From assembly GCA_965203325.1 (NCBI GenBank), contig OZ241875.1, forward strand, positions 1,856,001 through 1,920,000: 64,000 nt of DNA, read 5' to 3'. The translations under genes and the position numbers were made by a program. The DNA comes from a bacterium. Lineage in GTDB: Bacteria; UBA8248. The notes under the pieces were generated by a model. The model ran no database searches, was not told where the DNA came from, and worked only from the letters and a program-made list of their open reading frames with translations. Of the stretch, positions 5,046 to 58,860 are shown in pieces (the first letter of the stretch is position 1; each line of letters starts with the position of its first letter).

Positions 5046-5239
5046 GGTTCCTCCAGGAAATATGTAATCAAACCGCATACGAGCGGCGTCAAACGAGAGC
5101 GTATTCAAGCATAAATTTGACGAAAACGCAAGAGGGAAAATTCGAAAGTTATGTTATTTAATCAAGTATTATCAGTTAGTTGCATCATCCAGGCGTAGCC
5201 AGTCGAACGATTGACATACCGGTCGATTTGAATTATATG

Positions 5240-5382
5240 TTTGTTCGTCATTCCGGCGAAAGCCGGAATCCATTTGCGGGTGCGAGTGAATACGCGGCGG
5301 CGTTTCATTCCCCGCCGATGCGCAGGAATCCGGGTGAAAGGCAAAAGGCGTAAAAATGGATTCCGGCTTTCGCCGGAATGAC
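5240..5382. repeat. inverted pair of REP-like palindromes GTCATTCCGGCGAAAGCCGGAATCCA (BIME-like), with a degenerate middle copy
   Basis: 5247-5272 and reverse complement at 5357-5382; same unit recurs at 60391-60538. Confidence 0.85.
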
Positions 5383-5403
5383 GACGATCCCGGAATTACA
5401 AAG

Positions 5404-5419
5404 CTTTTTCAACAGCCCC
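5404..5419. mobile_element. isolated IS1182-type terminal inverted repeat
   Basis: CTTTTTCAACAGCCCC matches the right end of the IS at 8482-8497 (15/16). Confidence 0.55.
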
Positions 5420-5480
5420 TGTTCAGGCGGATTTCGGACCTCTATTTGTATTTGCTGTTATCCCGTCTATAGTGGCCTCT

Positions 5481-5574
5481 TTATCCTTGTAAAATGAAAG
5501 TTTAATTTTTGATTTACTAGGATATTAAATAATTATCCTTGCAAATCAAAAGAAAATATTTTAATTTACAAGAA
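5481..5574 (+). promoter_or_regulatory. two tandem imperfect palindromes (putative operators) upstream of the AAA gene
   Basis: TTATCCTTGTAAAAT...ATTTACTAGG and TTATCCTTGCAAAT...ATTTACAAG, 52-bp period, AT-rich. Confidence 0.5.
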
Positions 5575-6752: not shown

Positions 6753-6984
6753 GTGGAAAAACCCTTCTCCGCCTCATCCTGAGTAGCGGCGGAGCCGCGT
6801 ATCGAAGGTCAAACGCGATTGATGAGGGCTTGTTGAAAAACCCCCTGAGAGGGTAATGGCAACCCCCTTGAAAGGGAAATCCCATAACGTCAACCCCCCC
6901 TACCCCCCCTTGTCAGGGGGGCAAGAAAAACAAACCCCCCGCTACCGGCGGTGGGCGTCGCCTTTTTTTACCCCCCTGACAAAA

Positions 6985-8497
6985 GGGGCTGTTGAAAAAC
7001 CCCTGGTTTTGTGATCGTATGGATGTATCCCCCCTCGCCCGAGATGGGAGATTCCTCGATGTTAGACCGCAAGAGGCGCGGGCAGATGGACTTGTTCGTG
7101 GCCGGCCCGCTGGAGAAGTTGATTCCCTAAGATCACATATTGCGCCAGGTGGACCGCGTACTGGATTTGAGCTGGCTTCGCGAGGAAGTGGCGGAGTGCT
7201 ATTGCGCGGACAACGGTCGTCCGGGTCTGGACCCCGAGGTGGTGGTTCGGTTGATGCTGGCGGGCCTGCTGCTGGGCTACGCGCAGGACCGGCGTCTGCT
7301 TCGCGAGGCGCAGGCGCATCTGGCGGTCCGGTGGTTCATCGGGTACAGGCTGGACGAGGAGTTGCCGGATCATTCGAGCCTGACGCGTATCCGTCAACGC
7401 TGGGGGGAGGAGCGGTTCAAGGAGATATTTCGGCGCACGGTTCAGTCTTGCGTGGAGGCGAAGGTGGCGAAGGGAGAAGTGGTTCACATGGACGCGTCTT
7501 TGATACGCGCGGACGTGAGTTGGGAGAGCCTGGCGGAACGCCACGCGGAGAAGGTGGTGCGGGAGAACGACTCGGAGGATGAAGCGGGGAAGAAGGGCGG
7601 CGGCGGTTCGGGGCCTGTGAGCCGAACGGACCCCGACGCGCGCCTGGCGCGCAAGAGCGCTCGGGCGGGTTTCGAGCCGAGCTACAAGCACCACGCGGTG
7701 GTGGACGATGAGCGGGGGGTTGTCCTCGACGTTGCGGTGACGGAGGGGACGTTGAACGAGCGGGAGATGATGGAGCCGCAGCTGGATGCGGTTTGCGAGC
7801 TCACGGGGCGTGACCCCGCGGTGGTGACGGCGGATAGTGGCTATGCGTACTCGAAGGTGTATGCGGCATTGGAGCGTCGGGGCGTCGCCGCGCTGATACC
7901 GGCGAAGAAGGAGCCTTCCCAGAGCCGTGTTCCGCTGCAGTTGTTCCGCTACGACGAGCGGAATGAGGTGGTGAAGTGTCCAGGGGGCAAGACGCTGCGC
8001 CCCCGGAAGGAGACGGAGCGGGGGCGCTGGTATGTATCTAAGACGCGCGATTGCGCGGGCTGCACGCTCAAGGCCGATTGCCTGTCGGCGTCTCGCACGA
8101 GCAGGACGGTGCTGGTTCCGCATGAATACCCGGCGCTGTTGCGCGCGCGCCGCCGCCACGCGCGCCGGGGGGAGGAGGAGGGTCGGCTGTGGCGGCGCCA
8201 CATGGGTCGCTCGGAGGGCTATCACGGCGAGGCGAAGAGTCGGCACGGACTGGCGCGGGCGGTGCGCCGGGGTCTTGCGAACATGAGGATCCAGGCCTAC
8301 CTGACGGCGACTGCGGTGAACCTCAAGCGGCTGGCCGCCGCTTTTGCGGCGGGTATATTCGCTCTGTGGAGGGCCTAGGCCGCCCGGAGACGCCGAATGA
8401 GCGCATATCGCGGCCTCACGCACCGATTGGGCTTCCTCTCCCAGGCCGCGTGAGCCGCCATACATCCCGCTTCAAAACGGGGTTTTTCAACAGCCCC
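6985..8497 (+). mobile_element. IS1182-family insertion sequence
   Basis: 19-bp perfect TIR GGGGCTGTTGAAAAACCCC (6985-7003) / GGGGTTTTTCAACAGCCCC (8479-8497); GACAA on both sides (6978-6982, 8498-8502). Confidence 0.9.
7059..8378 (+). pseudogene. IS1182-family DDE transposase with in-frame TAA at codon 24
   Basis: ATG 7059 MLDRKRRGQMDLFVAGPLEKLIP*DHILRQVD...; TAA at 7128-7130; GRPGLDP, LPDHSSL, MDAS, TDPDA, ADSGY, EGYHGEAK motifs. Confidence 0.88.
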
Positions 8498-12818: not shown

Positions 12819-13163
12819 GAAAAATCTCCCGCGACAAAACGAAAAAAACATTCCCGGCGGCAGTATGACGACCGAGGAAGGCTTCGTCAAAACCCGAACT
12901 GCACCGAGGGTGACGAGGGAGGGGCGTGGGGGGCGGGCGCGCAGAGAGATTGCGGAAGGGGTGTTGGGGGTCGTAGGGGCGGACCCGTTTGTCCACCCGA
13001 GGGTGGGGAATTGCCCGTTTACAGGAATAAAGGTAGTCGCCATGCCGCCGCCGCGCGCGCCTTACGCCGAAGGCCGATACAGGGTATTATCCGGCTGCCG
13101 GTTTTGCTGAGAAATGAACCAACCCGCCCTTGCCCGTAGATGGACTCAAGGAGATTCTCCCGC

Positions 13164-16028
13164 ATGGAAAGGGCGTCCACGATAGAGCAAGTGTTCAATT
13201 TCGCGTTCGGCGACGTACTGCGCGGGAAGCATCCGCTTTGGATGGACGCCATCGGCGTCGAACAAACCCATGTCCTGCAAGGCTCGGCGGGCAAGCATCC
13301 CGACCTGATTCTCTCGCCTCCGGGAACCTCGCCAGTGGCGATTGAAACGGAATTCACCCCTGCTGTCACGGTGGAGGAAGACGCCGCTTCCCGCTTGGGC
13401 AAACGCCTGGCGAGCGACGGCAGAAGGATAGAGAACGCCGTTGCGATCCGGGTTCCAGCCGAATTGCGGACAGTCGAGCAGAGTGGAATCGCGGACGCCG
13501 TTAGGCAAGCGGATTTCACCTATTGCGTTCTTTCAGAAACGAAAACCCAAGATATCCAAAGGTGGCCCGAGCATGGCTGGCTCCAAGGCGACATCGACGA
13601 CGTGGCGAACTGCCTGGAATCGGTGAGCCTCTCCGAATCCCTGGTATCAAGGACTACGGACATTCTTGAGGAGGGAGTTACTCAGGCCGCCAACATTTTG
13701 AAGGAAACGGATGAGAGCGTACAGCAAAAAATCGCTGCGCATCTGCACCAATCGCCGGGGGAGCAGACCAACCGCATGGCGGTCGCCATCATCGCAAACG
13801 CCGCCGTGTTTCATACGCGCATAGAGGGACGGCAGGGGATTCCCTTGATTGGCGGATTAGAGGGTTCGACGGGATTCATCAATACGGAAGTCATCCGCTG
13901 TTGGCGGTGGATCATCGAAAACGTCAACTACTGGCCGATATTCAAGATCGCGTCTGATTTGCTAAGTAACATACCAACGGCGCAAGCGAATCAAGTATTG
14001 GACCTGCTATATAAGACGGCGTCCAAACTAGCGAATATGGGTGCTACGAGCCTGAACGATCTTTCCGGGCGCATGTTCCAGAAACTCATCGCCGACAGGA
14101 AATTTCTCGCCACTTTCTATACGCTGCCAGTGTCCGCCACATTGCTTGCCGAACTTACCGCCTCCCGACTGCAAACGGAATGGCAAAGCTCAGATGCAGT
14201 GAAGAGTTTGAGAGTCGCCGACCTCGCCTGCGGAACCGGAACCCTCATCGGCGCTCTCTACCACGCCATTCTGTCCCGCCACCGCCGGACGGGACGCGAC
14301 GACGCCGAGGTGCATTCCGCCATGGTCGAGGGCTCTCTCTACGCTTTCGACATAATGCCAGCCGCAACGCACCTGGCGGCCTCCACCCTGTCGAACGCCC
14401 ATCCGAGCGTCGTTTTCGGAACCACCAGAATCGTCACCATGCCCTACGGCTACGACGAAAACAGACATCCCCACATCGGTTCACTGGACCTCATGGATCA
14501 GGTATTCATCACGCCCCTTCTCAGCCTGGGGGAGGAGAGAATCGCCGGCCGCGGGAACGAGGAAACGCAAAAGATCGGCGTCGAGCACGAGTTGTTCGAC
14601 GTCGTGATCATGAATCCGCCCTTCACCAACCCGACCAACCACGAAAAGGCGGAAGTCCCGATCCCCTCCTTTGCGGGCTTCAACACTTCCGAGGACGAGC
14701 AGAAGGCCATGAGTTCGCGGCTGAAGCAGATGCGCAAGAGCCTCCCGCAGCCCGTCGGCCACGGCAACGCCGGACTGGCTTCGAACTTCATCGATCTGGC
14801 CCACGTCAAGCTGAAGCCGGGCGGCGTTCTGGCGCTGGTGCTGCCCGCCACCTTCGCCCAAGGCGAATCGTGGAACGCCGCTCGGAATCTGCTGGCGGGT
14901 CATTACGAGGACGTAACCATCGCAACCATCGCCGGCGAAGGCGCGACCGAGCGCGCCTTTTCCGCCGACACCGGCATGGCCGAAGTGCTGGTCGTCGCCG
15001 CTAAAAAGATCGACAAAGACCGGAAATCCACTTTCCAGTTCGTCAATATACTGCGTCGTCCGGCGCATCACGTCGAAGCGGTCGAGTTGGCGAAGTTCAT
15101 GGCCGGGGTGGACCGCCGGGCGGGTACCGGACGCATCGCCATCGGAAGCGAGGCCAGCAACGGCAGTTACGTGAACGCGAAACAATTCAGTTGCGGCTGC
15201 GCGGGCGTGGCGGAAGCCGACCTCAGCGGGTTCATGCTGTCGCTGTTAAGCGGAACTCTCGTAGCCCCTCGAACAAAGGCCGAGATGACCTTGCCCATCG
15301 CTCCGCTGGGCGCACTGGGAAGTCGAGGGCTGTTGCATCGAGATCTTGCCGGAGCGCCTCCGCGAGGGTTGTTCGACAAATCGCCTTTGCGGCCGGGGCA
15401 GGTTCCCACCTACCCCGCGCTCTGGAGACATGATGCGAGGCGCGAGCGCTCCTTTATGGTGAAAGAAGACTCCGAATTACTGGCGCGGAGGGGTTACGAG
15501 AGCAAGGCGGCCGACGCCTGGAAGCGCTTCGCCTCCCGACTCCACTTGACGCTCGACTTCCGAATCAACTCGCAAAGCCTGGCGGCGTGCCTGACGCCGG
15601 AGAAGGCCCTAGGCGGTAGGGCTTGGCCGAACTTCATTCTGGAGGATGGGGCGCACGAAATCCCCGTCCTGCTCTGGCTGAACTCGACGCTCGGGCTGAT
15701 GGGCTATTGGTGGGAGGGAACCAGGCAACAACTCGGACGGACAGTAGTAACAATTTCCGCCCTGCCCTCAATACCTTCAATCGACGTACGACAAGTCGAC
15801 AAGACAATGCTCGCAAAAGCCGACGCCTTGTTCGAGCGCTTCCGCGGCGCGGAGTTCCTGCCCGCGAATGAGAGCTACCACGACCCCGCCAGGAAGGCTC
15901 TCGACGAGGCCCTGCTCGTGGAGTTGCTCGGAGTTCCGAAGGATATCGCGGACGAATTCGACGTCATACGCCGCCAGTGGTGCGCCGAACCAAGCGTCCA
16001 CGGCGGGAAAAGCACGAAGCCTTATTAG
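13164..16028 (+). CDS. fused restriction-modification enzyme (Type IIG-like): nuclease + amino-methyltransferase + TRD
   Basis: N-terminal PDL...IETE; motif I DLACGTGTL; motif IV MNPPF; LKPGGVLALVLP; AAGGAG RBS before ATG 13164. Confidence 0.85.
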   Translation: MERASTIEQVFNFAFGDVLRGKHPLWMDAIGVEQTHVLQGSAGKHPDLILSPPGTSPVAIETEFTPAVTVEEDAASRLGKRLASDGRRIENAVAIRVPAELRTVEQSGIADAVRQADFTYCVLSETKTQDIQRWPEHGWLQGDIDDVANCLESVSLSESLVSRTTDILEEGVTQAANILKETDESVQQKIAAHLHQSPGEQTNRMAVAIIANAAVFHTRIEGRQGIPLIGGLEGSTGFINTEVIRCWRWIIENVNYWPIFKIASDLLSNIPTAQANQVLDLLYKTASKLANMGATSLNDLSGRMFQKLIADRKFLATFYTLPVSATLLAELTASRLQTEWQSSDAVKSLRVADLACGTGTLIGALYHAILSRHRRTGRDDAEVHSAMVEGSLYAFDIMPAATHLAASTLSNAHPSVVFGTTRIVTMPYGYDENRHPHIGSLDLMDQVFITPLLSLGEERIAGRGNEETQKIGVEHELFDVVIMNPPFTNPTNHEKAEVPIPSFAGFNTSEDEQKAMSSRLKQMRKSLPQPVGHGNAGLASNFIDLAHVKLKPGGVLALVLPATFAQGESWNAARNLLAGHYEDVTIATIAGEGATERAFSADTGMAEVLVVAAKKIDKDRKSTFQFVNILRRPAHHVEAVELAKFMAGVDRRAGTGRIAIGSEASNGSYVNAKQFSCGCAGVAEADLSGFMLSLLSGTLVAPRTKAEMTLPIAPLGALGSRGLLHRDLAGAPPRGLFDKSPLRPGQVPTYPALWRHDARRERSFMVKEDSELLARRGYESKAADAWKRFASRLHLTLDFRINSQSLAACLTPEKALGGRAWPNFILEDGAHEIPVLLWLNSTLGLMGYWWEGTRQQLGRTVVTISALPSIPSIDVRQVDKTMLAKADALFERFRGAEFLPANESYHDPARKALDEALLVELLGVPKDIADEFDVIRRQWCAEPSVHGGKSTKPY

Positions 16029-46562: not shown

Positions 46563-47042
46563 GCCTCCACTGTCGTCCGGAACGATTGAAATACGTCGTG
46601 GGTCCAAGACGCCGGCGCAGGGCCCCGCCTCGCTCAACTCCCTTCACCGGAAGCTCGGACTTAAAGCGGAAATACCGGGATTTCTTCGATTCTATATCTA
46701 ACCACTATGGCCGACCGGCGTCATCCAGTCAAGAAAACTCCCAGGTATTCCATTCCCGCCGGAGCGCCGGCGGCATCCGGTCCAAGGCGCCGAAAGCGGT
46801 ATTGCGCCAGAAACATGACTATGAGTTGCCAAACATGAAGAAATTCTATATCGTAGGGAGCGCATTTCTTGGAGATGCAGTTCTGAATGACTACGTTGCC
46901 TATCCAGGAATTCGGTGGATGGGCTTGCGTTTATGTGAGATAATAAGGTATTACCCTAGGCACGTTACGTTTGTTGCCCATGCATACACTCTCGGGGTGT
47001 AGGGTCAGAGGAATCTCACGCTGTTGGGAGGCAGAGCCAAGC

Positions 47043-47381
47043 ATGGAAATTAAGACTGAGCAGGAAAGCGGGACGTTGGTCGTGCAGGTTGACGGCCGCA
47101 TCGACGGCGCCACCGCCCCGGATTTCGAGAGCACCATCAAGAACGTAATCAGCGAAGACGACCGCGCCGTCATCGTTAATTTCGAGGGAGTCTCGTATAT
47201 CAGCAGCGCCGGCCTCCGCGCCGTTCTTCTCGTCGCCAAGCAGCTTAGTCAAAGCAACACGAAGTTCGCCCTGTACGCGCTCGGAGAACTGACGCGCGAG
47301 GTTTTCGAGATATCCGGCTTCGACCGCATCATTCAGATCCACAACTCGAAAGCGGACGCCCTCGCCGCGACCGCGAACTGA
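47043..47381 (+). CDS. STAS-domain anti-sigma-factor antagonist (RsbV/SpoIIAA-like)
   Basis: VDGRID, VSYISSAGL phospho-Ser motif, VFEISGF. Confidence 0.92.
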   Translation: MEIKTEQESGTLVVQVDGRIDGATAPDFESTIKNVISEDDRAVIVNFEGVSYISSAGLRAVLLVAKQLSQSNTKFALYALGELTREVFEISGFDRIIQIHNSKADALAATAN

Positions 47382-47389
47382 CGGCCGGA

Positions 47390-47417
47390 GGCGAAGAAGG
47401 AAAAACCTTTTTTCGCC
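47390..47417. terminator. hairpin between convergent STAS and kinase genes
   Basis: GGCGAAGAAGG-AAAAA-CCTTTTTTCGCC. Confidence 0.5.
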
Positions 47418-47525
47418 GTCTGACCTCCTGGATTCGCGAGTCGCGGCTTTCGCCGTGCCCCCCCAACCATCTTTCGTCTTCCTCGATATTTTCTCGAATC
47501 TTTTCGGGCAGGAAGTCAGCGCGGA

Positions 47526-49715
47526 TCACCGCGGCAATTCGACGATCATTTCCGTGAATTCGTCCGGCTCGGTTTCGACCCGTATGTTTCCCCCATGCTG
47601 ACGAATAATGTCGCTGGATAGAGAAAGGCCGAGCCCGGTGCCCTTGTCCGTCGGCTTGGTCGTGAAGAAGGGGTTGAATATCTTCTCGACGACCTCAGGC
47701 GGCATCCCGCTCCCGTTGTCGCGAATGCGGACCTCGATGCCGTCCGGCCTGCACCTGGTAACGAGCTTCAGCGTGGGATCGTAGCGCGGCGCATCTTCGA
47801 CAGAGGCGACTTTTTGCCGTTTCTCATGGGTGGCGTAGCAGGCGTTGCTCACCATGTTCAGGAAGACGCGGCCCAGATCCTGCGGAATGACCTCGCATTC
47901 CACCATATCCGGATCCAAATCCCAATCGAGCGTGAGGTTGAAATTTGGGTCTGCCGCCCGTGCGCTGTGGTAGGCGAGGCGCGCGTGTTCGTCGAGCAGG
48001 GTGTTGATGTTGGTCGGCTGCGCCTCTCCCGAACCCCTGCCCATCTGGAGCATGCTCTCCACGATGTTGTTGGCCCGCTCCCCGTGTTCGCGGATGCGCT
48101 GGAGGTTGCCGGTGAGGTCTTCTCCGATTTCGGTGATGAGCTCGATCGGATCCTCTTCGTCCTGCTTTTTCTCCTCCTTGTCCTCCTGCGGTTCCTGCCC
48201 GTTTTCCTGCCCGTTGCCGCCGTGAGCCGCCATCTTCTCCAACTCTTCCATCAACTCCTCCATCAGCTCTTCGGAGACTTCCGAGAAGTTCTTGATGAAG
48301 TTCAGCGGATTTCTGATCTCGTGAGCCACGCCCGCCGTCAATTCACCGAGCGCCGCGAGTTTTTCGCGCATGACAATCTGATCCTGCGCCTTTTCCAGAT
48401 CGCCGAGCGCGCTTTCGAGTTCCTCGTTTTTGCCCTTGATCTCCTCGGCCAGTTTCTCCACCAGGTTGAGGCGCTGCACCTCCAAGGCATGGCGGCGGAA
48501 GATTTCGAGCGCTGCGGCCATTTCCGCGACTTCGTCCTGCCCGCCGATATCGACTTTCTCCTCCAGATCGCCGTCGGCCATGCGGCGCATGCGGTCCGAG
48601 AGCCGACCGAGTCGACGCGAAAGCACACGGCCGATGAACAGCCAGCCGATCAGCACGGCGCCGATGAAACTGATGGCGCTCAGCGCGAGCAGGATGTTGC
48701 TGCCGGTGCTGATGGCCTGGGCGGAATCCTGGGTGGCCTGCTTCGCGCTCTTGCGGGCCGTGCCCACCAGCGTTTCGGTGGCGGCCAGAATTTTCGCTTC
48801 CTGAGATTCGTGAAACGCGAGCAACTCGCCCTGTTTCCTCTCGAGCGCCAGTTCACGCGCGCGCAGATTGAAACCGCCATCCTCCCCGATGCTCAACTCG
48901 ATCATCTGTTCGAAGAGAGGCTCGAGAGCCGCGCGCACCGGAACCTTTCCAAGCGCGTTCATACGCCGCCGGATACCGCGCGCCGTGGCCTCGAAGCGCT
49001 CGCGCAACGGCTCGATCTGGGCGGCGTCCGATACGCTGAAAGCGGTGGCGAGAAGCTGGGTCGCGATAGTGGCGTCCGACCGCAAGCCGGCGATGTAGCG
49101 GTAGAGGTTAAACCCCTCCTCCGAGAAGTGCTTTTCACGGGGAACGGGCGCCGCGTCGATTTTGCCGTAACCCGTCATCGCGTAGAACAACTGATCGTCG
49201 ATGGCGGGAACCATGACGTTGTTCAGCTCCTTGCGCACCCATGTGAGCTGGAGTTGCAGGGTATCGCGCAGATCGGTGAGATCGAAGCGCTGCAGCACCA
49301 ATCGTTTGATGGCATTGAGGTTCTCTATCAGCACGTCTCCGAGCTTCTTGATGCGCAAGGAGATTTCCTCATTCCCTTCCTGGCGAATCAGCGCCGCAAG
49401 CGCCGTCTCGAACGCCTCCTGGTCCTTGGCGACCTCGGTGGCTATTTGGTCCAGGATGTCAGGGTTCACCACTGCGGCCAGCCGCGGCGCGGCGGCCACC
49501 AGGGCGGTGCTCTCCTGGGCGATTCCGAAGGCGCTCGCCAGGAACGGGACGGTGCCTTCGTTCACGCGGTTCTGCACCTCGCCCACGAACCCGAACGAGA
49601 CCCATGCAACCACGCTCGCGATGACGGTGAGAGAAGCGGCGGCGCCGATGCTGAGGTAGAGTTGCGTCGATATCTGGTAACGCTTGTCCAGGAGGTTCTT
49701 CAGCGCGCTTTTCAT
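47526..49715 (-). CDS. membrane sensor histidine kinase (large helical TorS-like periplasmic domain, HAMP, HisKA, HATPase)
   Basis: Two TM segments, HAMP (DEVAEMA), AHEIRNP, NMVSNA, DNGSG, FFTTK, GTGLGL; TorS resemblance judged by eye. Confidence 0.9.
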   Translation of the reverse strand: MKSALKNLLDKRYQISTQLYLSIGAAASLTVIASVVAWVSFGFVGEVQNRVNEGTVPFLASAFGIAQESTALVAAAPRLAAVVNPDILDQIATEVAKDQEAFETALAALIRQEGNEEISLRIKKLGDVLIENLNAIKRLVLQRFDLTDLRDTLQLQLTWVRKELNNVMVPAIDDQLFYAMTGYGKIDAAPVPREKHFSEEGFNLYRYIAGLRSDATIATQLLATAFSVSDAAQIEPLRERFEATARGIRRRMNALGKVPVRAALEPLFEQMIELSIGEDGGFNLRARELALERKQGELLAFHESQEAKILAATETLVGTARKSAKQATQDSAQAISTGSNILLALSAISFIGAVLIGWLFIGRVLSRRLGRLSDRMRRMADGDLEEKVDIGGQDEVAEMAAALEIFRRHALEVQRLNLVEKLAEEIKGKNEELESALGDLEKAQDQIVMREKLAALGELTAGVAHEIRNPLNFIKNFSEVSEELMEELMEELEKMAAHGGNGQENGQEPQEDKEEKKQDEEDPIELITEIGEDLTGNLQRIREHGERANNIVESMLQMGRGSGEAQPTNINTLLDEHARLAYHSARAADPNFNLTLDWDLDPDMVECEVIPQDLGRVFLNMVSNACYATHEKRQKVASVEDAPRYDPTLKLVTRCRPDGIEVRIRDNGSGMPPEVVEKIFNPFFTTKPTDKGTGLGLSLSSDIIRQHGGNIRVETEPDEFTEMIVELPR

Positions 49716-50899
49716 CTCTTCTCCGGCCGCCGGATTTTTTCGGTCGGGATGTAGCGGCCGCCCTCGCCGACGACGGTGAGGAAAACGGCGTCCGAACCCT
49801 GGTTGTCGTCTTTGCCGAAGCGGAGCTTGAATCCGCCGAGGTCGATGGTGGCCGCGCGTCGCAGGCTTTTCAGAAGACAGTTGCGGTCGGGCTTGCGCCC
49901 GCACAACTCGAGGGCGCGAATGGCCAGTCTGCCGGCCATGTAGCCCTCGAATGAGACGAAGCTGGGAGTCGCGCCGGGTTTGTGAGCCTCCAGGTCCCGC
50001 CGGTAGTCGGCCGCGATCTCGAGATTCTCCATCGTCGGGAACGGAACCACCTGCGTGACGTAGATACCGACGCCGGCGGGGCCGAGTTCACGTACGAGCG
50101 CATTGCTGCCCACGAAGGATATTGTTACGAAAATCGGATTGAACCCCGTATGGCGCGCCCACGCGATGAAGGAGGCGACCGGTTTGTAGGCCCCCACGAG
50201 GACCACCGCTGCGGGGTCCGCGCGCCTGATGTCGAGCAGGGCCGTTTTGACCGCCGTCGTATTCCGTGGATAGACTCCGGTGACCGCCGGTTTCAGTTTG
50301 CGCCGCTCCAGGGCGCGGCGAACGCCCCGGTAGCCCGCCAGACCGAAAGAATCGTTCTGGTAGAGCACGGCGATCTTCTTGACGTCCAAGTCCTTGATCA
50401 GGCGATCTACTATCTCCTCGGTCTCCTGGAAATAGGAGGCCCGCAGGTTGATCACGTTCTTCCATTTGGGATCGCGCAAGAAGGCGGCGCCGGTGAAGGG
50501 CGCGATGTAGGGGACGTTCGCTTTTGCGGCGACCGGCGTGGCCGAGCGCGAGGTGGGCGTACCGACGGCCCCGATGAGCGCGAAAACCTTGCTCTGCTCT
50601 ATCAGCCGGCGGGTGTTCAGGATGGCGGCTTCGGGTTCATACGCATCGTCGAGGGATGTGAGTTCGAGCCGGCGTCCGTGAACGCCGCCGCGCTCGTTCG
50701 CCGTGCGAAAGGCGGCTTCGACCCCGAGACGCATTTCCTCGCCCAGAGCACTCGCGGGACCGGTGAAGGCGGCGGATTGACCGAAAAGAACCCGGTCAGG
50801 AGAAACCCCGGGCACGGCCGCCTGCGCCCCCGACGCCGAGCAGATTATCGCTGCAGCAAGGAGGATAAACGTCCGGCGGATTCGGAGCGGGAGGCTCAT
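49712..50899 (-). CDS. periplasmic binding protein (Liv/Peripla_BP_6 type), no cognate permease
   Basis: Signal peptide; GQSAAFTG, GGVHGR.LEL..LDDAYEP, GAVGTPT, RASY. Confidence 0.9.
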   Translation of the reverse strand: MSLPLRIRRTFILLAAAIICSASGAQAAVPGVSPDRVLFGQSAAFTGPASALGEEMRLGVEAAFRTANERGGVHGRRLELTSLDDAYEPEAAILNTRRLIEQSKVFALIGAVGTPTSRSATPVAAKANVPYIAPFTGAAFLRDPKWKNVINLRASYFQETEEIVDRLIKDLDVKKIAVLYQNDSFGLAGYRGVRRALERRKLKPAVTGVYPRNTTAVKTALLDIRRADPAAVVLVGAYKPVASFIAWARHTGFNPIFVTISFVGSNALVRELGPAGVGIYVTQVVPFPTMENLEIAADYRRDLEAHKPGATPSFVSFEGYMAGRLAIRALELCGRKPDRNCLLKSLRRAATIDLGGFKLRFGKDDNQGSDAVFLTVVGEGGRYIPTEKIRRPEKR

Positions 50900-51315
50900 T
50901 CACTCCTCCGCTTGACAAGGCGCATATGGTTCTTGTTCTCCTCCCGTCGATAAGTCACATCGTCCATCATCGTCCGCACCAGGTGGATACCGAGCCCGCC
51001 CACGGCGCGGTCTTCGATGCCCGAGTCGGTGTCCGGTTCGGGCGCGTCGGTCAGGGGATCGAACGGACGGCCGTCGTCGATGATATCGATGATCACCGCC
51101 TCCGCGTCCGAGATGAGTTCGATGCTGATTTCCCCCTCTCCGCCTTCGCTGCCATGATGTACGACGTTGAGAATCAACTCTTCGAGCACGAGGTCGACCT
51201 GGAATTCGATGTCGGGCGGCCAGTCCTGCTCCCGGCTGAATTCCCCGATGGCGGACTGGATGCGCGGGAGATCCGAGGCCTCGAATCCCATTGTCAAAGA
51301 AAGTTTCGCGCTCAT
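50896..51315 (-). CDS. RsbW-like anti-sigma factor / Ser kinase (HATPase_c_2)
   Basis: EELILNVVHHG, DDGRPFDP, GGLGIHL. Confidence 0.92.
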   Translation of the reverse strand: MSAKLSLTMGFEASDLPRIQSAIGEFSREQDWPPDIEFQVDLVLEELILNVVHHGSEGGEGEISIELISDAEAVIIDIIDDGRPFDPLTDAPEPDTDSGIEDRAVGGLGIHLVRTMMDDVTYRREENKNHMRLVKRRSE

Positions 51316-52529
51316 TCACTCACTCCACGGCGAAAAAGGGTCAGGCAAGTAATATCATCGAATTGAGGCGCTTTGCCCGCGAATTCCTTTACATCCTCAA
51401 AAACCTTCGTGTTGATCTCCCGGGCCGAGGCCGGCGACGCCCCCCCCAGAATCTCCCGGAGGCGGTCGAGGCCGAACTGCTCGGTCTTCTCGTTCTCCGC
51501 CTCCGTGACGCCGTCAGTGTAAAGGACGAGGGCGTCACCGGGGGCGAGAGTCGCATTGTACATGTCGTAACTGAACTCGGGCGCGATCCCGAGGGCGACG
51601 CCCGGATCCTGGGAAAGCAGGCTCGATGAGCCGTCGGCGTGAAGGACGAGCGGGGGGTTGTGCCCGCCGTTGGCGTAGACGAGTTCCCCGGACGTGGAGT
51701 CGTAAATGGCGAAAAAAACGGTGACGAACATCGCGGCCTCGTTGTTCTCCTGAAGCAGGCGGTTCACCTCGCTCAACACATCACCGGGCCGGAGCAGACG
51801 GTTCACCTCACCGAGCACATCGCCCGGATTGGCGCGAGCGACAGCGACGCTGTTGAGCAGCGTGCGGCTCGACATCATGAAAAGGGCGGCGGGCACCCCC
51901 TTGCCGGAAACGTCGGCGACCGTGATGCCGATGCGGCCATCGGACAGGTCTATCACGTCGAAGAAATCACCCCCTACGTCGCGGGCGGGCTCCATGCCCC
52001 CGAATATCTCGTAGTGGGGGCTTTCGGGGAATTTCGTCGGCAGAATCGATTGCTGCATCTTGCTGGCCAGGTCGAGGTCGCTCCTCAGGGCGACCAGCTT
52101 GTCGCGCGCCTCGAGCGCTTCGCGCAGCATGGCGAGGTGCTCCAGGGTCCGTTCTATGGTGATCCGCAAATCCTCGAAATCGATCGGCTTGGTGACGAAG
52201 TCGAAGGCGCCCCTGTTCATCGCCGTCCGGATGTTCTTCATGTCCCCGTACGCCGAAACCACTACGGAGCGCACGTTGGGGTCAACCGAGGGGATTTGCT
52301 TGAGCAGGGTGAGGCCGTCCATCTCCGGCATGTTGATGTCCGTGAGCACCATGTCGATAGGGTCGCCGCCATCGTTATCGTTCAAGCGCTCGAGCGCTTC
52401 GACCCCGTTGCGGGCGAAGACGAACGAATAGCGGCCTCTTCGTATCTCGCGCCGCATGCGCTGCAACACGAGCTGCTCGAGATCGGGCTCGTCGTCGACC
52501 ACGAGTATCCTGTGGGGTTCCTCCATCAC
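51312..52529 (-). CDS. REC + SpoIIE/PP2C phosphatase (RsbU/RsbY-like)
   Basis: VVDDE, TDINMP, KP; VGGDFFD, ADVSGKG, YTDGVTEA, DDIT. Confidence 0.93.
   Translation of the reverse strand: MMEEPHRILVVDDEPDLEQLVLQRMRREIRRGRYSFVFARNGVEALERLNDNDGGDPIDMVLTDINMPEMDGLTLLKQIPSVDPNVRSVVVSAYGDMKNIRTAMNRGAFDFVTKPIDFEDLRITIERTLEHLAMLREALEARDKLVALRSDLDLASKMQQSILPTKFPESPHYEIFGGMEPARDVGGDFFDVIDLSDGRIGITVADVSGKGVPAALFMMSSRTLLNSVAVARANPGDVLGEVNRLLRPGDVLSEVNRLLQENNEAAMFVTVFFAIYDSTSGELVYANGGHNPPLVLHADGSSSLLSQDPGVALGIAPEFSYDMYNATLAPGDALVLYTDGVTEAENEKTEQFGLDRLREILGGASPASAREINTKVFEDVKEFAGKAPQFDDITCLTLFRRGVSE
51754..51827 (-). repeat. 39-bp-period in-frame tandem duplication in the PP2C domain
   Basis: PGDVLGEVNRLL-R-PGDVLSEVNRLL. 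Confidence 0.85.
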
Positions 52530-52966
52530 TGTCTCCCTTCCGCCAACATCTTGTCGCGCGCCTCGAAGGCTTCCCGCATCGACTTGAGATGCTCCAAAGA
52601 CTTCTCGATGGTAAGCCGCAAGTCCTCGAAATCAATCGGCTTGTTCAGGAAATCGAATGCGCCCCTGTTCATCGCCGTCCGGATGTTCTTCATGTCCCCA
52701 TACGCCGAGACGATGACACAGCGGAGCTTGGGGTCGAAAGCGGGGATTTGCTCGAGCAGGGTGAGGCCGTCCATCTCCGGCATGTTGATGTCCGTAATGA
52801 CGATGTCGATTTCATCGTCATTGTTTAAGCACTCTAGCGCCTCGACCCCGTTGCGGGCGAAGACGAACGAATAGCGGCCGCTGCGAATTTCGCGCCGCAT
52901 GCGCTGCAGCACCAGACCTTCAAGATCGGGTTCGTCGTCGACTACGAGTATCCTGTGCGAATCCAT
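52526..52966 (-). CDS. single-domain response regulator, close paralogue of the REC of the downstream phosphatase
   Basis: VVDDE, TDINMP, SAYG, KP. Confidence 0.92.
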   Translation of the reverse strand: MDSHRILVVDDEPDLEGLVLQRMRREIRSGRYSFVFARNGVEALECLNNDDEIDIVITDINMPEMDGLTLLEQIPAFDPKLRCVIVSAYGDMKNIRTAMNRGAFDFLNKPIDFEDLRLTIEKSLEHLKSMREAFEARDKMLAEGRQ

Positions 52967-54054: not shown

Positions 54055-55827
54055 TCAACCCCCTCCGCCGCCGGCCGCGCCCGGAACCTCCACGCGCAGG
54101 GTCACGATGTCCGTGTCGTGGTATTGCTGGTGGTGAACCGAAGACGCGAGGTGGCGCAGCAGTCTGAGCGAGACTTCGCGCTCAATCGGGGAGCCTGCGG
54201 TCTGCTCGCCGAGCAGCGCGATTTTGTCCTGGAGGTTCTCCTCTCCGCCCGCGGCGACGAACTCCAGCACCGCGCCGCCGTCTTCTTTATGCGCCACCAT
54301 GAGCAGACGCCGCCGCTTGCGGCTCTCGTCGGCTTCGTCGGGGCGCAGGAGCGTCAGCAGCGTTTCCTCGCCCGCGGCGTCGAGGCGATGCGCCATCGCC
54401 TCATCCCAGCCGCTGGCCGAGGCGAACTCACCGAGAAACTCCCTGATCTTCGGCAAGGCGGAGATGTCGAACGCCACCTCGATACGGCTGCGGCGCGGTT
54501 CGGTGAATTCGACGAACAAGGTCATGATCATGGCGACGAGGCCGCCGGCCGTCATTCCGTTGTTCAAAAGGCCGCCCGCGAACGTCGAGAAATACTCGGG
54601 ATATATGACGCCGTTCTGGAAGCCGACACCCGCCCAGAACGCGACGCCCGCCACCAGCCCCTTGCGGTAGTCGATCCCGTCGTGAACGACCATCCGCATG
54701 CCGACCACGAAGAGCATCGCCAGCAGCACAGTAATGTAGGCCGCGGCGACCGGCCCTGGTATCGCCAGTACCACGGCGACCAGCTTGGGAAGAAACGCCA
54801 GGGCGAGGAACACCAGCCCGGCGGCGACTCCCACGCTGCGCGCGCCGACGCCGGTGAGTTCGGTGACGGACACGCTCGTCGAATAGGTCGTGTTCGGCAC
54901 CGTCGCCAAAAGGCCGGAGAGCAGGTTGCCCACTCCGTCGGCGGCCACCGCGCCCTGCACCGCCTTGAAGTCCACCGCCCGGGGCCGCCGCCAGGATACG
55001 CGCTGGATGGCGGCGCCGTCGCCGACCGTCTCGATGGCGCCGATGAGAGTCACGAAAATGAATCCCGGCAGAAGCGTCCAGAAAACCGGCCCGAAGCTCA
55101 AGTCCAGGCCCGGCCATGCGCCCCGTGGAAGACCGATCCATGAAGCTTCAGCGACGCGGGCCGTATCGTAGATGCCGAAATAGAGTCCGACGAGCGAGCC
55201 CGCGGCCACGCCGATCACGGGCGCCCACAGGCGCAGCGCGCCCGTCGCCTTGAGCGCGATGCCGACGATGACCACCGCCGACACGAACGCGCTCAGCGGA
55301 GCAGCGAGCGGGGAAGCGTCCTTGGGCGCGTCATCGAGCATGCCGAAGACGATGGGCATCACCGTCACCGCTATCAGCATGATGACGGTTCCCGCGACGG
55401 TCGGCGTCAGCACCCGCCGGAACAGTGAGAGACGCTCCGAGAGCACGAACTGAAAAAGCGAGGAGGCGAGGACGAGCGTGGCGAGCATCCCCGGCCCGCC
55501 CTTGGCGAGCGCCGCGATGCAGACCGCGATGAAAGCGCCCGATGTGCCCATGATGAGCACGTAGCCCGCGCCGAAGCGGCCGACCCGGAACGCCTGGAGC
55601 ATCGTGGTTGCGCCGCAGATCGCCACCGCGGCGAACACCGCCCACGAGAGATAGTCCTCGGTACCGCCGGCTGCGCGCACCACGATCGCGGGCGTGAACA
55701 CGATGCCGCCCACGCAGAGGACGGCGAGTTGCAGGCCGAGGCCGAACGCGAGCAGGGGCGGCGGTTTCTCGTCGGCCTCGTAGCGTACGTCGGTGTTCGC
55801 GCGCTGGTCGGCGTTTTCGGCGCTCAT
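54055..55827 (-). CDS. NCS2 (xanthine/uracil permease) family transporter fused to a C-terminal degenerate RsbW-like domain
   Basis: YEADEKPP..LAFGLGLQ, TPTVAGTVI, IETVGD, PNTTYS; ~150-aa soluble tail LPKIREFL..F....GW...EETLL...EVSLRLLRHL. Confidence 0.85.
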   Translation of the reverse strand: MSAENADQRANTDVRYEADEKPPPLLAFGLGLQLAVLCVGGIVFTPAIVVRAAGGTEDYLSWAVFAAVAICGATTMLQAFRVGRFGAGYVLIMGTSGAFIAVCIAALAKGGPGMLATLVLASSLFQFVLSERLSLFRRVLTPTVAGTVIMLIAVTVMPIVFGMLDDAPKDASPLAAPLSAFVSAVVIVGIALKATGALRLWAPVIGVAAGSLVGLYFGIYDTARVAEASWIGLPRGAWPGLDLSFGPVFWTLLPGFIFVTLIGAIETVGDGAAIQRVSWRRPRAVDFKAVQGAVAADGVGNLLSGLLATVPNTTYSTSVSVTELTGVGARSVGVAAGLVFLALAFLPKLVAVVLAIPGPVAAAYITVLLAMLFVVGMRMVVHDGIDYRKGLVAGVAFWAGVGFQNGVIYPEYFSTFAGGLLNNGMTAGGLVAMIMTLFVEFTEPRRSRIEVAFDISALPKIREFLGEFASASGWDEAMAHRLDAAGEETLLTLLRPDEADESRKRRRLLMVAHKEDGGAVLEFVAAGGEENLQDKIALLGEQTAGSPIEREVSLRLLRHLASSVHHQQYHDTDIVTLRVEVPGAAGGGGG

Positions 55828-56063
55828 GTCGTATCCTTCGCGGCTGGAAAATGGATCCGTCGCCGATCGCAAACCCTGTTTCGATGTCCTCGCAACGGAG
55901 CGTAAGTTTCTCACACCCTTTTCGGCCCCTCAAGAAAAAAGGCCCGCAAAGGATATCGACGGGCGAAAACCGACAAACCTGCGGTATTTTCAGGCGAATA
56001 TCGTGGTTTCGGGGGTTTTGGGTACGGAAATCGCACTTTTTTCGGTGCATGAATACATTTTTG

Positions 56064-56091
56064 TTGACGAAAGAAACGCAATATATATACT
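56064..56091 (+). promoter_or_regulatory. putative sigma70 promoter for the RiPP precursor
   Basis: TTGACG-16 nt-TATACT in an AT-rich intergenic region. Confidence 0.55.
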
Positions 56092-56240
56092 TTTCCGATA
56101 GCCTCTTTATCTTTTTTTAGGCGGAGGGACTGCAAGGCGAACTCTCTCCCGAACAAAGCGGCCGTGGCGCCCCGGCAGTGGAAAACGAGGGAACACCACC
56201 TCCTTTTCGGCCAGGGACATATTCCGGAGAACTCGAGGCA

Positions 56241-56528
56241 GTGAAAACTGTAGAGGAAGTACGCGAAGAGATTGTCAAAAAAGCAAGCGAGAACGAGGCA
56301 TTCCGCGCCGAATTGGTGGCCGACCCCAAGGTCGCCATTGAAAAGGAATTGGGAGTCACCATTCCCGAGGGGTTCAAGATCGGCGTGCACGAAGACAACA
56401 TCATGAGCATCAACCTGGTGCTGCCGCCGGCCGAATTGAGCGAGGAGGAACTGAGCGCCGTCGTGGCCGGAGCACAGATGTGGCAAGAATTCGCCAACGC
56501 CTGGAACAGCTTGAACCAAAACTCCTGA
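56241..56528 (+). CDS. NHLP (nitrile-hydratase-like leader) RiPP precursor, proteusin-type
   Basis: IVKKASENEAFRAELVADPK.AIE.ELG..IP...I.VHE......LVLPP.ELSEEELSAVVAG, then core AQMWQEFANAWNSLNQNS. Confidence 0.9.
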   Translation: MKTVEEVREEIVKKASENEAFRAELVADPKVAIEKELGVTIPEGFKIGVHEDNIMSINLVLPPAELSEEELSAVVAGAQMWQEFANAWNSLNQNS

Positions 56529-56723
56529 TACGATATATCCAAATAGAGCAACAGTCCATTCGGTCGGTTCGCCGAAAAGCCCCGGGAAGGGGATGGTTCG
56601 GGACGTCGCTTTGCGGGTTGGAACCGCGCTGCGGCCCGCTTCGCCGAAGGGAGGCCGGGGTGTCGCGCTTGCTCATCGCCGCGTTGCCCCCAATGTAGGC
56701 GTCCCGCTCGGAAACAGGGTTCG

Positions 56724-57821
56724 ATGATGTCTGAGAATTTCGGGGACGTCTTTCCAAGGTTGCGCCGCTTCGTTCCACCGGCCTTACTCGACGGCCCGTG
56801 GTGGGACCGCCTGGTGGAGCGCGTCGGTGAACTTCCGAGTTGGCTGACTCTGAATTACGCGGCCTTCGAGTTTCGGCTGGGAGACCCTGCGCCCGCCGCC
56901 GATTATTTCGTCTCGGTTGCGCCGGGGCGTCCGTCCATGGAGTATTACGTTCGTCTGGGCGAGGCCGCAAAACCCGACTCCGCGGAGGCGGCTCTCGGCC
57001 GCGTCTACGCTCTCATGAACGGAGCGGGCCCCCCTTCCGAATCATCTCTCACCGGCTGGTTCAGGGCGTCGATGCTCGAATACGACATCGCGGAAGTCCC
57101 CCCGGACCTGCGCCCGGCCCCGGGCGTGTTCCTGGCGCTCAAGCCTCAATCCGAACTGGATGAAGACGTCGCGGGCGCAAGAACGCCCCACCGCCTGGCC
57201 GCCACCATAGCGAACGCGGTCGGGTGGGAGGAGGACGAGGCGGAGCGTCTCGCCGTGGAGCGGGCCTTCGCCGCCTTGCCCGGCAGCGGCGTGGTGGATC
57301 AGATTGGCGCCGCCCCCGAGCGCGGGCCGCGCCTGATTCGCCTGATCGTGGACGGGTTGAAACTGCGCAACGTGCCCGCATTCCTGAAACGGCTGAAATG
57401 GGACGGCTCCACCCGGAAAGTGATGGACACGCTGGAGGAGATGCGCGATATGACGCCCATCTTCCGGATGGCGCTGGACGTCTCCGCGCACGGCGTGGGG
57501 CCGCGCCTGGGTCTCGAGATGTACAGGCCGAGAAGCCCCTCGGACCTCGACTACTGGCTGACTTCGGGGCGCAACGCCTGGCGTCCCGTCGTGGACTACC
57601 TCGAAGAGATGAAATGGTGTCTGCCGGAGAAGGGGGACGGCCTGCGGGCGTTCCCGGGAATCGAGAGGCTCTTCGAGGAAAAGGGCATGTCCATCCTCTA
57701 CAAGGGAATCAACCACTTCAAGCTCTCGATCGAGGGCGACGCCGTAGAAGCCAAGGCCTACGCCGCCCTCGCCTACTTCCGGCTCTACGCCGACTCGGAG
57801 GGTGAGTCGGAGCAGGGGTAA
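56724..57821 (+). CDS. putative RiPP maturase, probable ABBA-fold (aromatic/peptide) prenyltransferase
   Basis: Co-oriented directly after the precursor; FEFRL, LEYD, IRL, LDV..GPRLGLE, NHFKL, AKAY repeating strands with basic residues; fold is inferred. Confidence 0.55.
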   Translation: MMSENFGDVFPRLRRFVPPALLDGPWWDRLVERVGELPSWLTLNYAAFEFRLGDPAPAADYFVSVAPGRPSMEYYVRLGEAAKPDSAEAALGRVYALMNGAGPPSESSLTGWFRASMLEYDIAEVPPDLRPAPGVFLALKPQSELDEDVAGARTPHRLAATIANAVGWEEDEAERLAVERAFAALPGSGVVDQIGAAPERGPRLIRLIVDGLKLRNVPAFLKRLKWDGSTRKVMDTLEEMRDMTPIFRMALDVSAHGVGPRLGLEMYRPRSPSDLDYWLTSGRNAWRPVVDYLEEMKWCLPEKGDGLRAFPGIERLFEEKGMSILYKGINHFKLSIEGDAVEAKAYAALAYFRLYADSEGESEQG

Positions 57822-57873
57822 ATTTCGGTGGGCACCGGCGGGCGGCCCGTCATCCCCTGAAATTCTGCGCCTC

Positions 57874-58194
57874 CTACGAAATCGCGCCATCCCCCGCCGT
57901 GAGGACGACGTGCTCGGCCCGGACGCGCTCTCGGAAGCGCGCGGGGGTGGAACCCCAGACGAAAACGTCCACGCGAAACGGCAGGTTGCTCTCCTCGAAG
58001 GCTTCTTTCAGATCGGAAACCCGGCGGCTTTGGGCGGGATCTGCGAACACGACCATATCCAGATCGGATTTGGGACGCGCCTCTCCCCTGGCGCGGGAGC
58101 CGTACAGCCAGGCGGCGGTGTTCGGCAGATGCTTATCGAGCAAATCCAAAATGAGTGCGCGCTGCGCCTCGGTGATGTCGACCCGTCCGCTCAT
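57874..58194 (-). CDS. minimal nucleotidyltransferase (MNT) antitoxin
   Basis: LYGSRARG...SDLD, LPFRVDV; ATGA overlap with the HEPN gene. Confidence 0.9.
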   Translation of the reverse strand: MSGRVDITEAQRALILDLLDKHLPNTAAWLYGSRARGEARPKSDLDMVVFADPAQSRRVSDLKEAFEESNLPFRVDVFVWGSTPARFRERVRAEHVVLTAGDGAIS

Positions 58195-58610
58195 TTCCAA
58201 CTCCGTCCGCTCATGGTTCGGTAGAGGGCCGCTGCGTCCTCCATGAAGTCGCCCACTACCTCCAGGGCGGCTCGCGCCTTCTCGCCGCTGTAGGCGTGGG
58301 CGGTATCGACGCGCCCCTCCGCATAGCCCAGCCATCGTTCTACAGGAGCGGGTATCAAATCGTTCTCGAAGGCGAGCCTGAAGATGGGCTTGGGGCTGTT
58401 CGGAGAGTCCGCGACGCCCAGTTCTTCGACCAGGTATCGCTTGAGAACCTTCCAGAGGCAGTCGTAGCAGGTCTCGAAACGCCGGATGACCGACTCGGCC
58501 ACGGCTTCCTGGAGCAGTTGGGGTAGCGCCGCATCGAGATTCCGGTAATTCTCGTATTGCTCCTCAAGACGTCCGAGGGACATTTGAAAATTATCGTATT
58601 CAACCATCAT
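58191..58610 (-). CDS. HEPN (NTase_sub_bind/HI0074) toxin
   Basis: VIRRFETCYD..WK.LKRYL, SPKPIFR, R-X4-H (RVDTAH). Confidence 0.88.
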   Translation of the reverse strand: MMVEYDNFQMSLGRLEEQYENYRNLDAALPQLLQEAVAESVIRRFETCYDCLWKVLKRYLVEELGVADSPNSPKPIFRLAFENDLIPAPVERWLGYAEGRVDTAHAYSGEKARAALEVVGDFMEDAAALYRTMSGRSWK

Positions 58611-58860
58611 GCGCCTCACACCGCCCAAAAACCTTTATCCGCATCAAGTCTCAGCCATCATCCCAAACGGCATGGATTTGTCAAAGAACCTCGCCGCGCA
58701 TTTGCGGTGTGTGTCGAACGGTCGGGCGGGTTTCAGGGCGCGTTTCCCGGAGGCGTATGAGGAGGCGTCGAAATTCAGCCGGATTGACACCTCGGAAGGG
58801 CCTTTTTAGTATGGGGTCATTCTCGGGAAGGGGCGTCCGGATCATTGATAAGGAGTGGAT

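Follow-up and report, generated by a model that had tools for sequence, protein, structure and literature searches.

A two-gene cassette of an NHLP precursor and a predicted prenyltransferase-barrel protein, proposed to carry out leader-dependent tryptophan prenylation

What does a peptide gene with an NHLP leader make when the only enzyme encoded beside it matches no named protein family? The question is raised by a 64,000-nucleotide stretch of a bacterial genome placed in UBA8248 by GTDB (GenBank assembly GCA_965203325.1, contig OZ241875.1, positions 1,856,001 to 1,920,000 of the forward strand). This whole stretch is called the window here, and coordinates count from its first letter. Two co-oriented genes on the plus strand form a cassette, a precursor gene at 56241-56528 and a 365-amino-acid open reading frame (ORF) at 56724-57821. 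Peptides gain lipophilicity and bioactivity through prenylation, and there is demand for the enzymes responsible as biocatalysts. An original prediction, made from the DNA letters of the window, had proposed that the larger protein is an alpha-beta-beta-alpha (ABBA) prenyltransferase acting on a Trp-containing core peptide. [quoted passage not shown]

The precursor ORF runs from a GTG at 56241 to a stop codon at 56526-56528 and encodes 95 amino acids. All 14 aligned orthologs share an identical MKT start, and the GTG at 56241 is therefore taken as the start codon. The leader comprises residues 1-77 (56241-56471, plus strand) and is largely invariant in the orthologs. It scores 65.1 bits against the NHLP model TIGR03793, where the cut-off is 50.9, and covers model positions 2-77 of 77. 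The leader ends in ...ELSEEELSAVVAG, and relative to the AG of this double-glycine-type end, Leu stands at -12 and -7 and Val at -4, all kept in 14/14 orthologs. A hydrophobic -4/-7/-12 pattern, L(X)4L, is described for double-glycine/C39 processing of NHLP precursors in the accessible parts of two reports (PMC10858898, PMC12537861). By both its leader score and its double-glycine end, the peptide belongs with the NHLP/proteusin-type precursors. The 18-residue core AQMWQEFANAWNSLNQNS and its stop codon follow at 56472-56528 (plus strand). The core, whose letters occupy 56472-56525, is free of Cys and has a computed unmodified mass (M) of 2137.93. The original prediction had named this leader with its processing site and this Cys-free core, and both are borne out.

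It had also placed W4, F7 and W11 of the core on one helical face. On a helical wheel, the three residues do fall within an 80-degree arc, together with L14, and this part of the claim stands. Conservation of the face does not: position 4 is Trp in 7 of 14 orthologs and Met, Pro or Tyr in the others, and F7 can be Leu. Core positions 1-8 vary, and A87, W88, N89 and L91 of the precursor (A-W-N-x-L) are invariant in 14/14 orthologs. W4 and F7 are dispensable for a model of Trp prenylation because, of the residues on that face, only W11, with L14, is invariant. Since A-W-N-x-L is the only invariant part of the core, the alignment makes core Trp11, which is precursor W88, the best candidate for the modified residue.

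The 365-amino-acid protein (56724-57821, plus strand) is proposed as a leader-dependent peptide prenyltransferase on the strength of its AlphaFold2 fold, its structure matches and its invariant residues. The model, built from a 64-sequence alignment, has a mean pLDDT of 92.8 and a pTM of 0.91, with 304 of 365 residues at a pLDDT of at least 90. The order of its secondary structure is five alpha-alpha-beta-beta repeats, and the predicted model contains the 10-stranded antiparallel barrel. A Foldseek search of the PDB returned 83 matches at E<=1e-3, and the matches listed are aromatic prenyltransferases throughout, including AmbP1, TleC, NphB/Orf2, IptA and PriB. VIA re-alignment placed 131 of 999 chains at Z>=8. 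The top match was MpnD, with a Z of 16.5 and a root-mean-square deviation of 4.4 over 297 residues (model residues 2-353). In an independent scan of 48,161 PDB representatives, 19 chains reached Z>=8, and all of them are ABBA/DMATS prenyltransferases: MpnD, DMATS1, FgaPT2, FunA, AnaPT, CymD, NotF, AuraA, TleC, a 6-DMATS, CdpNPT, FtmPT1, NphB, EpzP, AmbP1, CloQ, PatF, PagF and DciF. The chain at rank 20 has a Z of 5.4. The protein is thus predicted, with a confident model, to have the aromatic-prenyltransferase barrel fold, as had been proposed from its sequence motifs. By its own terms, the original prediction would have been refuted by a structure other than an ABBA barrel, and the model gave no such structure. 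The proposed likeness to the cyanobactin F enzymes is correct as to the fold, with PagF at Z 12.0 and PatF at 12.1, but the DMATS-type indole prenyltransferases are nearer (MpnD 16.5, CymD 15.4).

The motifs from which the barrel had been proposed, FEFRL (48-52), IRL (205-207), HFKL (331-334) and AKAY (343-346), lie on predicted beta strands, as expected. Across eight paralogs that are 31-43% identical, eleven charged or aromatic residues are invariant: E49, D60, E119, D121, R200, R203, K303, H331, K333, K344 and Y346. Structural Gly and Pro residues are also invariant in the eight paralogs, and most of the eleven show little or no variation among 64 family members. E49 (with R51), E119/D121, H331/K333 and K344/Y346 stand in an i/i+2 register on the predicted strands, and this spacing looks like that of lumen-facing barrel residues. 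The motifs FEFRL, HFKL and AKAY coincide with these positions. In ABBA enzymes, the diphosphate is held by a ring of Arg, Lys and Tyr, and an acidic residue acts as a base or Mg2+ ligand. The candidate diphosphate-site set here, R200, R203, K303, H331, K333, K344 and Y346, is invariant, and several of its members are on predicted strands. The persistence of eleven such residues among paralogs so diverged argues for a live active site.

The two genes also travel together. The enzyme family was found in 16 of 51 genomes searched from the phylum, all within the genus of the window: the window's own genome and 15 of the 22 others. An NHLP precursor lies just upstream of the enzyme in 16/16 ortholog loci. 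When the precursor was searched for with its own alignment, it turned up in exactly those 16 of the 23 genus genomes that have the enzyme, and the remaining 7 were without it. Precursor and enzyme genes are kept or lost together in the genus; the genomes are kin, and co-occurrence over 23 of them is no statistical test. The most divergent ortholog locus (L025, on C8 of genome G024) has two tandem precursors. The same genome has eight family matches with unusual cores (e.g., ...YRLDIF and ...GTPWV), and several of these matches contain stop codons.

Beyond the orthologs, the genome of the window encodes four family members, three of which adjoin NHLP precursors. One paralog, 31% identical to the window protein, is part of an srp-type cluster ~1.23 Mb beyond the window (locus L038, G000:C1:3141333-3156455). 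In order, this cluster encodes a Trp halogenase, a 192-amino-acid protein of no assigned function, a C39-ABC exporter, an ABC protein, a 433-amino-acid NHLP-like/SQHop fusion, a desaturase/GlnE-like protein of 798 amino acids, YcaO, the prenyltransferase-barrel (PT-barrel) paralog and a convergent precursor. The precursor has 83 amino acids and the core LCCCW. The 433-amino-acid fusion consists of an NHLP-like domain and a squalene-hopene-cyclase-type repeat, with a match to SQHop_cyclase_C of 28.4 bits (cut-off 26.1). An LCCCW core, YcaO and a brominase make up the srp system as published in the accessible parts of two reports (PMC10858898, PMC10286304), and srp precursors are described as highly transcribed in sponges in the available text of a preprint (bioRxiv 10.1101/2023.06.09.544420). 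A precursor is present in 11/11 srp-type paralog loci, with the core LCCCW in 10 and LSCCW in 1. A terpene-cyclase-like neighbor makes sense in this setting only if a prenyl group is put on first, and the pair of PT-barrel and cyclase-like proteins suggests that the srp end product carries a (cyclized) isoprenoid.

A second cluster of the same genome (locus L039, G000:C1:3702719-3714420) contains a precursor whose core is AIYY; after it come genes for a PT-barrel paralog, HlyD, a C39-ABC exporter and an ABC protein. The fourth paralog lies there on the other strand, and the precursor has a P450 gene and a methyltransferase gene beside it. The original prediction had called for a genome search for a C39 peptidase-transporter. 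Exactly two C39 domains occur in the whole genome, both belonging to these paralogous clusters and far outside the window. The two exporters that contain them are encoded at G000:C1:3143602-3145812 and 3706813-3709389. Three relatives that carry only the two-gene cassette were checked, and each has one C39-ABC exporter far from the cassette.

A related clade, 41-43% identical to the window protein, was traced to 25 loci in metagenome-assembled genomes (MAGs) labeled Gamma- and Alphaproteobacteria, Binatia, Spirochaetia and Vicinamibacterales. NHLP precursors are present in 22 of the 25 loci, 110 in all. Of the 109 cores that could be parsed, 84 end in Trp; when each distinct core is counted once, Trp is present in 73 of 75 and stands at the end of 54. 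Hypervariable as these cores are in other respects, they have one constant, an aromatic residue that is nearly always Trp. In this clade, neighboring genes encode C39-ABC and ABC exporters and HlyD, sometimes together with a JmjC/cupin protein or a second paralog. Members of this clade that are 66-98% identical occur in MAGs labeled as different phyla, which suggests horizontal spread. Taken with the pairing in the genus, this genomic context supports a Trp-directed maturase acting on an NHLP precursor. The clade arrays (loci L040-L063) hold up to ~12 NHLP precursor genes per locus around one or two PT-barrel genes. Their cores are 8-27 amino acids long and end mostly in DW or NW, and the JmjC/cupin protein recurs near them.

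Several observations weigh against Trp prenylation by this protein, and the first of them concern its sequence. The protein matched no Pfam or NCBIfam family. None of 17 relatives, nor any of 64, matched a prenyltransferase Pfam model at E<=1, and the family profile found no prenyltransferase among PDB sequences. Its lone match there, PARP14 at E 1.5, was taken as chance. By sequence, the protein is outside PF11991 (Trp_DMAT), PF11468 (PTase_Orf2), PF19156 (DUF5838) and the NCBIfam prenyltransferase families. A Trp_DMAT Pfam search of its own genome gave no match, but the controls gave none either. A word-indexed search recovered 112 family clusters, of which none had a Pfam domain and the five that were named were called hypothetical. 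An exhaustive search found at least 975 representative clusters at E<=1e-3, 104 of them at E<=1e-30, and ten distant members that were looked up were all unnamed or hypothetical. Named look-alikes from a protein language model were Trp_DMAT, PTase_Orf2 and DUF5838 clusters at 0.88-0.89, which serve as leads only. Fused longer forms of the family (640-2000 amino acids) were not found, in a search rated as weak evidence. With no tie to the prenyltransferase families at the sequence level, membership in the superfamily therefore rests on the predicted fold, and a shared fold by itself shows no function.

A PT-barrel could accordingly be put to other uses, such as chemistry with another electrophile, cyclization or C-terminal tailoring, or a non-catalytic role as a leader-binding scaffold. 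The place of the family outside every sequence-defined prenyltransferase family favors this, as does PatF (Z 12.1) among the structural matches, a protein that we take to be an inactive cyanobactin ABBA protein. No prenyl diphosphate synthase gene adjoins the cassette among the window ORFs scanned. Prenyl donors, on the other hand, are universal metabolites, and a dedicated gene is not required. The eleven residues kept invariant by the paralogs speak for a live active site, all 19 strong structural matches are prenyltransferases, and the srp paralog has a terpene-cyclase-like neighbor. A barrel with other chemistry, or none, is for these reasons an unlikely explanation.

The next observations concern the target. 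In this precursor the conserved Trp lies internally, 8 residues from the C-terminus, and most relatives instead end in Trp or Tyr. Moreover, N86, N89, N92, Q93 and N94 likewise show no or almost no variation across the 14 orthologs, and with neighboring Asn, Gln and Ser residues conserved, another residue could be the target. The protein might then be a prenyltransferase of this precursor that acts at W4, at the N-terminal amine freed by cleavage, or at O or N atoms of the Asn/Gln/Ser tail. Cyanobactin prenyltransferases do prenylate many side chains, including Ser, Thr, Tyr, Arg and His (PMC12715784), and the model aligns with PagF and PatF at Z ~12. The only feature that the cores of all paralogous systems share, however, is Trp (Tyr in one case), indole prenyltransferases are the nearest in structure, and W4 is present in only half of the orthologs (7/14). 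Prenylation at another site is accordingly improbable, and more so than a change of chemistry.

The last observations concern the cassette itself: no protease or exporter gene lies within it, no RNA run is listed as containing the stretch, and one enzyme ortholog in a complete relative (locus L018, genome G014, C1:726739-727818) has an in-frame TAG beside an intact precursor, which could reflect a pseudogene or a sequencing error. It is very improbable that the two genes form no RiPP system and that a small, stable NHLP-like protein works with the 365-amino-acid protein, for example in signaling or regulation, without cleavage or export: the lack of a protease or transporter and the vertical conservation beside a nucleobase permease in 12/15 ortholog loci, like that of a housekeeping locus, would suit such a role, but the leader carries every element of the cleavage signature, L(-12), L(-7), V(-4) and AG, it is conserved while the N-terminal half of the core varies, as in RiPP precursors, paralogs are in clusters with C39 exporters, and every cassette-only genome checked (3/3) has a C39 exporter.

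For leader-dependent prenylation of the precursor Trp, the following sequence of events is proposed, in which we infer leader binding, prenyl transfer, the target residue and processing in trans; what the analysis shows is the kind of precursor, its cleavage-type motif, the predicted fold, the conserved residues and the strict pairing of the genes. The soluble PT-barrel enzyme would recognize the folded NHLP leader. A prenyl diphosphate would be bound via R200, R203, K303, H331, K333, K344 and Y346, and E49, D60, E119 and D121 may supply the Mg2+ or base functions. The core would reach the open end of the barrel, where the allylic cation formed from the prenyl diphosphate would alkylate the indole of W88. 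Cleavage after AG and export of the peptide would then be the task of a C39 peptidase-ABC exporter acting in trans, whose gene lies in another part of the genome. The product would be a linear, amphipathic, Trp-prenylated 18-mer. A predicted complex of enzyme and precursor reached an ipSAE of 0.47, against 0.15 for the best control, which lends weak support. Of 157 solved complexes, 116 reached the mark that it passed, as did 2 of 215 mismatches, and passes at or below 0.60 are, without a good prior, more often wrong than right. The prediction runs share at least 60% of their contacts, and the pLDDT of the partner is at least 69.

How far does the unit extend? On one side is a nucleobase permease gene (54055-55914, minus strand; Xan_ur_permease in Pfam), and on the other a convergent MntA/HepT-like toxin-antitoxin pair (57874-58628, minus strand). 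The permease is kept in 12/15 ortholog loci and the toxin-antitoxin pair in only 3-4/15; therefore, the unit is the two genes. A candidate sigma-70-like promoter at 56064-56091 (plus strand) consists of TTGACG, 16 nt and TATACT, a consensus match at 10 of 12 positions. It is the sole promoter-like site in 55900-58000, where shuffled sequence gave a mean of 0.3, and it is a consensus match only. The GC content of the stretch upstream of the precursor is 0.50, against 0.61 for the window. The 195-nt intergenic spacer (56529-56723, plus strand) has no terminator-like site, and its predicted RNA fold is no better than that of shuffles (z 0.50). Because it lacks both, the idea of an attenuator between the genes was dropped, and one bicistronic transcript of precursor and enzyme would be the simplest reading. 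The DNA sequencing runs that contain the stretch are mostly labeled sponge metagenome and come from several studies.

No other RiPP maturase was found in the window. Among 43 scanned ORFs, none has a YcaO, radical SAM, LanM/LanC or C39 domain, in agreement with the earlier statement that YcaO, radical SAM, LanM and PCAT genes are missing, and neither cyanobactin PatA/PatG-type proteases nor a halogenase was found among them. The toxin-antitoxin pair is composed of an MntA-like nucleotidyltransferase and a HepT-like protein (NTase_sub_bind / HI0074), a type VII-like module. If the MntA-like gene begins at an internal Met (MSGRV...), its ATG overlaps the upstream stop codon as ATGA. A signaling gene group at 46971-52966 encodes a STAS-domain protein, a HAMP histidine kinase, a periplasmic binding protein, an anti-sigma-type kinase-like protein, a response regulator fused to a PP2C/SpoIIE-like domain and a single-domain response regulator, and has no evident link to the cassette. 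A PalP-like role for these two-component/partner-switching genes was dropped, as they are on the other strand and beyond two unrelated genes. Near the start of the window (2710-8375 and 13140-16025) are a phage-type integrase, an AAA/DUF4143 protein, a DDE transposase and a 962-amino-acid ORF without a Pfam match.

To our knowledge, the ABBA peptide prenyltransferases known until 2024-2025 were leader-independent cyanobactin enzymes, and few leader-dependent ones have been described (MppC and NctPC). The cyanobactin enzymes PagF, PatF and DciF have the same barrel fold as the window protein, at Z 11.1-12.1, and act on peptides. Cyanobactin F enzymes are leader-independent and act after proteolysis or macrocyclization (PMC12715784). 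The window, in contrast, lacks PatA/PatG-type proteases, its precursor is of NHLP type, and the cyanobactin structures are more distant than the DMATS-type ones. The closest structures to the predicted one are MpnD, CymD, FgaPT2, NphB and CloQ, with Z of 12.5-16.5 over 262-305 residues within residues 1-354. Enzymes of the DMATS/Orf2 type differ in their acceptors, which are small molecules or free Trp, and are 5-13% identical in the structural alignments; the window protein matches neither PF11991 nor PF11468.

MppC of Moorena producens is an ABBA enzyme that requires its precursor's Nif11 leader in full and attaches geranyl to C5 of one Trp (PMC12715784). Like the proposed enzyme, it is a soluble alpha-beta-beta-alpha prenyltransferase that modifies one Trp behind a long, folded leader with L(X)4L (PMC12715784). 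Its substrate is a lanthionine-cyclized heptapeptide from a Nif11 precursor in a multi-enzyme cluster (PMC12715784), unlike the window cassette, which has an NHLP leader, a linear Cys-free core and no other maturase. As described in a review, NctPC (Hubrich et al., Chem 2024) combines an ABBA P domain with a cyclase and puts geranylgeranyl onto Trp (PMC13290415). Its P domain is an ABBA barrel with low similarity to cyanobactin prenyltransferases, and prenylates a peptide Trp (PMC13290415). Where NctPC fuses P and C domains, the window protein is a separate chain with no cyclase nearby, and the srp paralog has a separate cyclase-like neighbor. MppC or NctPC might belong to the present family.

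Another parallel is PalX/PalQ of Paenibacillus alvei. In the part of the report available, PalQ prenylates the C-terminal Trp of the NHLP precursor PalX, and the NHLP domain enhances catalysis (PMC10853753). The two systems are alike in having a minimal cluster, in which one prenyltransferase accompanies an NHLP-type precursor that has a conserved Trp. PalQ differs in its all-alpha ComQ/trans-IDS-like fold and its C-terminal target, and its cluster includes a histidine kinase, according to the same part of the report (PMC10853753). The srp clusters (SrpE, SrpC, SrpI), as presented in the accessible parts of their reports (PMC10858898, PMC10286304), are tied to the family through the LCCCW precursor that adjoins the window protein's paralog in the same genome. 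The window cassette is no srp cluster: it has no YcaO, halogenase, Cys or exporter, and its core has 18 amino acids with an internal Trp.

Literature searches on NHLP/proteusin prenylation and on Srp genes yielded no account of the family; its srp homolog may be annotated in the 2021 srp paper or in Hubrich 2024. A survey of sponge RiPP clusters lists NHLP-plus-cupin clusters, with no prenyltransferase noted in its accessible part (PMC9426513). With no Pfam or NCBIfam model, the family is missed by domain-based cluster mining. We tentatively propose, at somewhat less than even confidence, that the PT-barrel family is the class-defining maturase of a large, unrecognized group of leader-dependent, Trp-prenylated NHLP peptides in MAGs labeled as several phyla and in sponge metagenomes. 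The group would comprise three kinds: the two-gene cassette, the hypervariable Trp-ending arrays, and the abundant and highly transcribed srp clusters. If this is true, the final srp product would be a prenylated, possibly terpene-cyclized, brominated thiazoline peptide. If the family prenylates, a missing step of the ubiquitous srp pathway would be assigned, and the Trp-terminated hypervariable arrays would point to a substrate-tolerant, leader-guided tool for Trp lipidation. The simplest system for testing this is the window cassette, which has a single precursor, a single enzyme and one conserved Trp.

Set against these systems, what is established is ABBA prenylation of RiPPs, both in cyanobactins and on leader-bearing lanthipeptide precursors (MppC, NctPC), and prenylation of a C-terminal Trp in an NHLP precursor (PalQ). 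What is new is a family without detectable similarity to the defined prenyltransferase families, its strict partnership with NHLP precursors, and a minimal two-gene form in which the candidate target Trp is internal.

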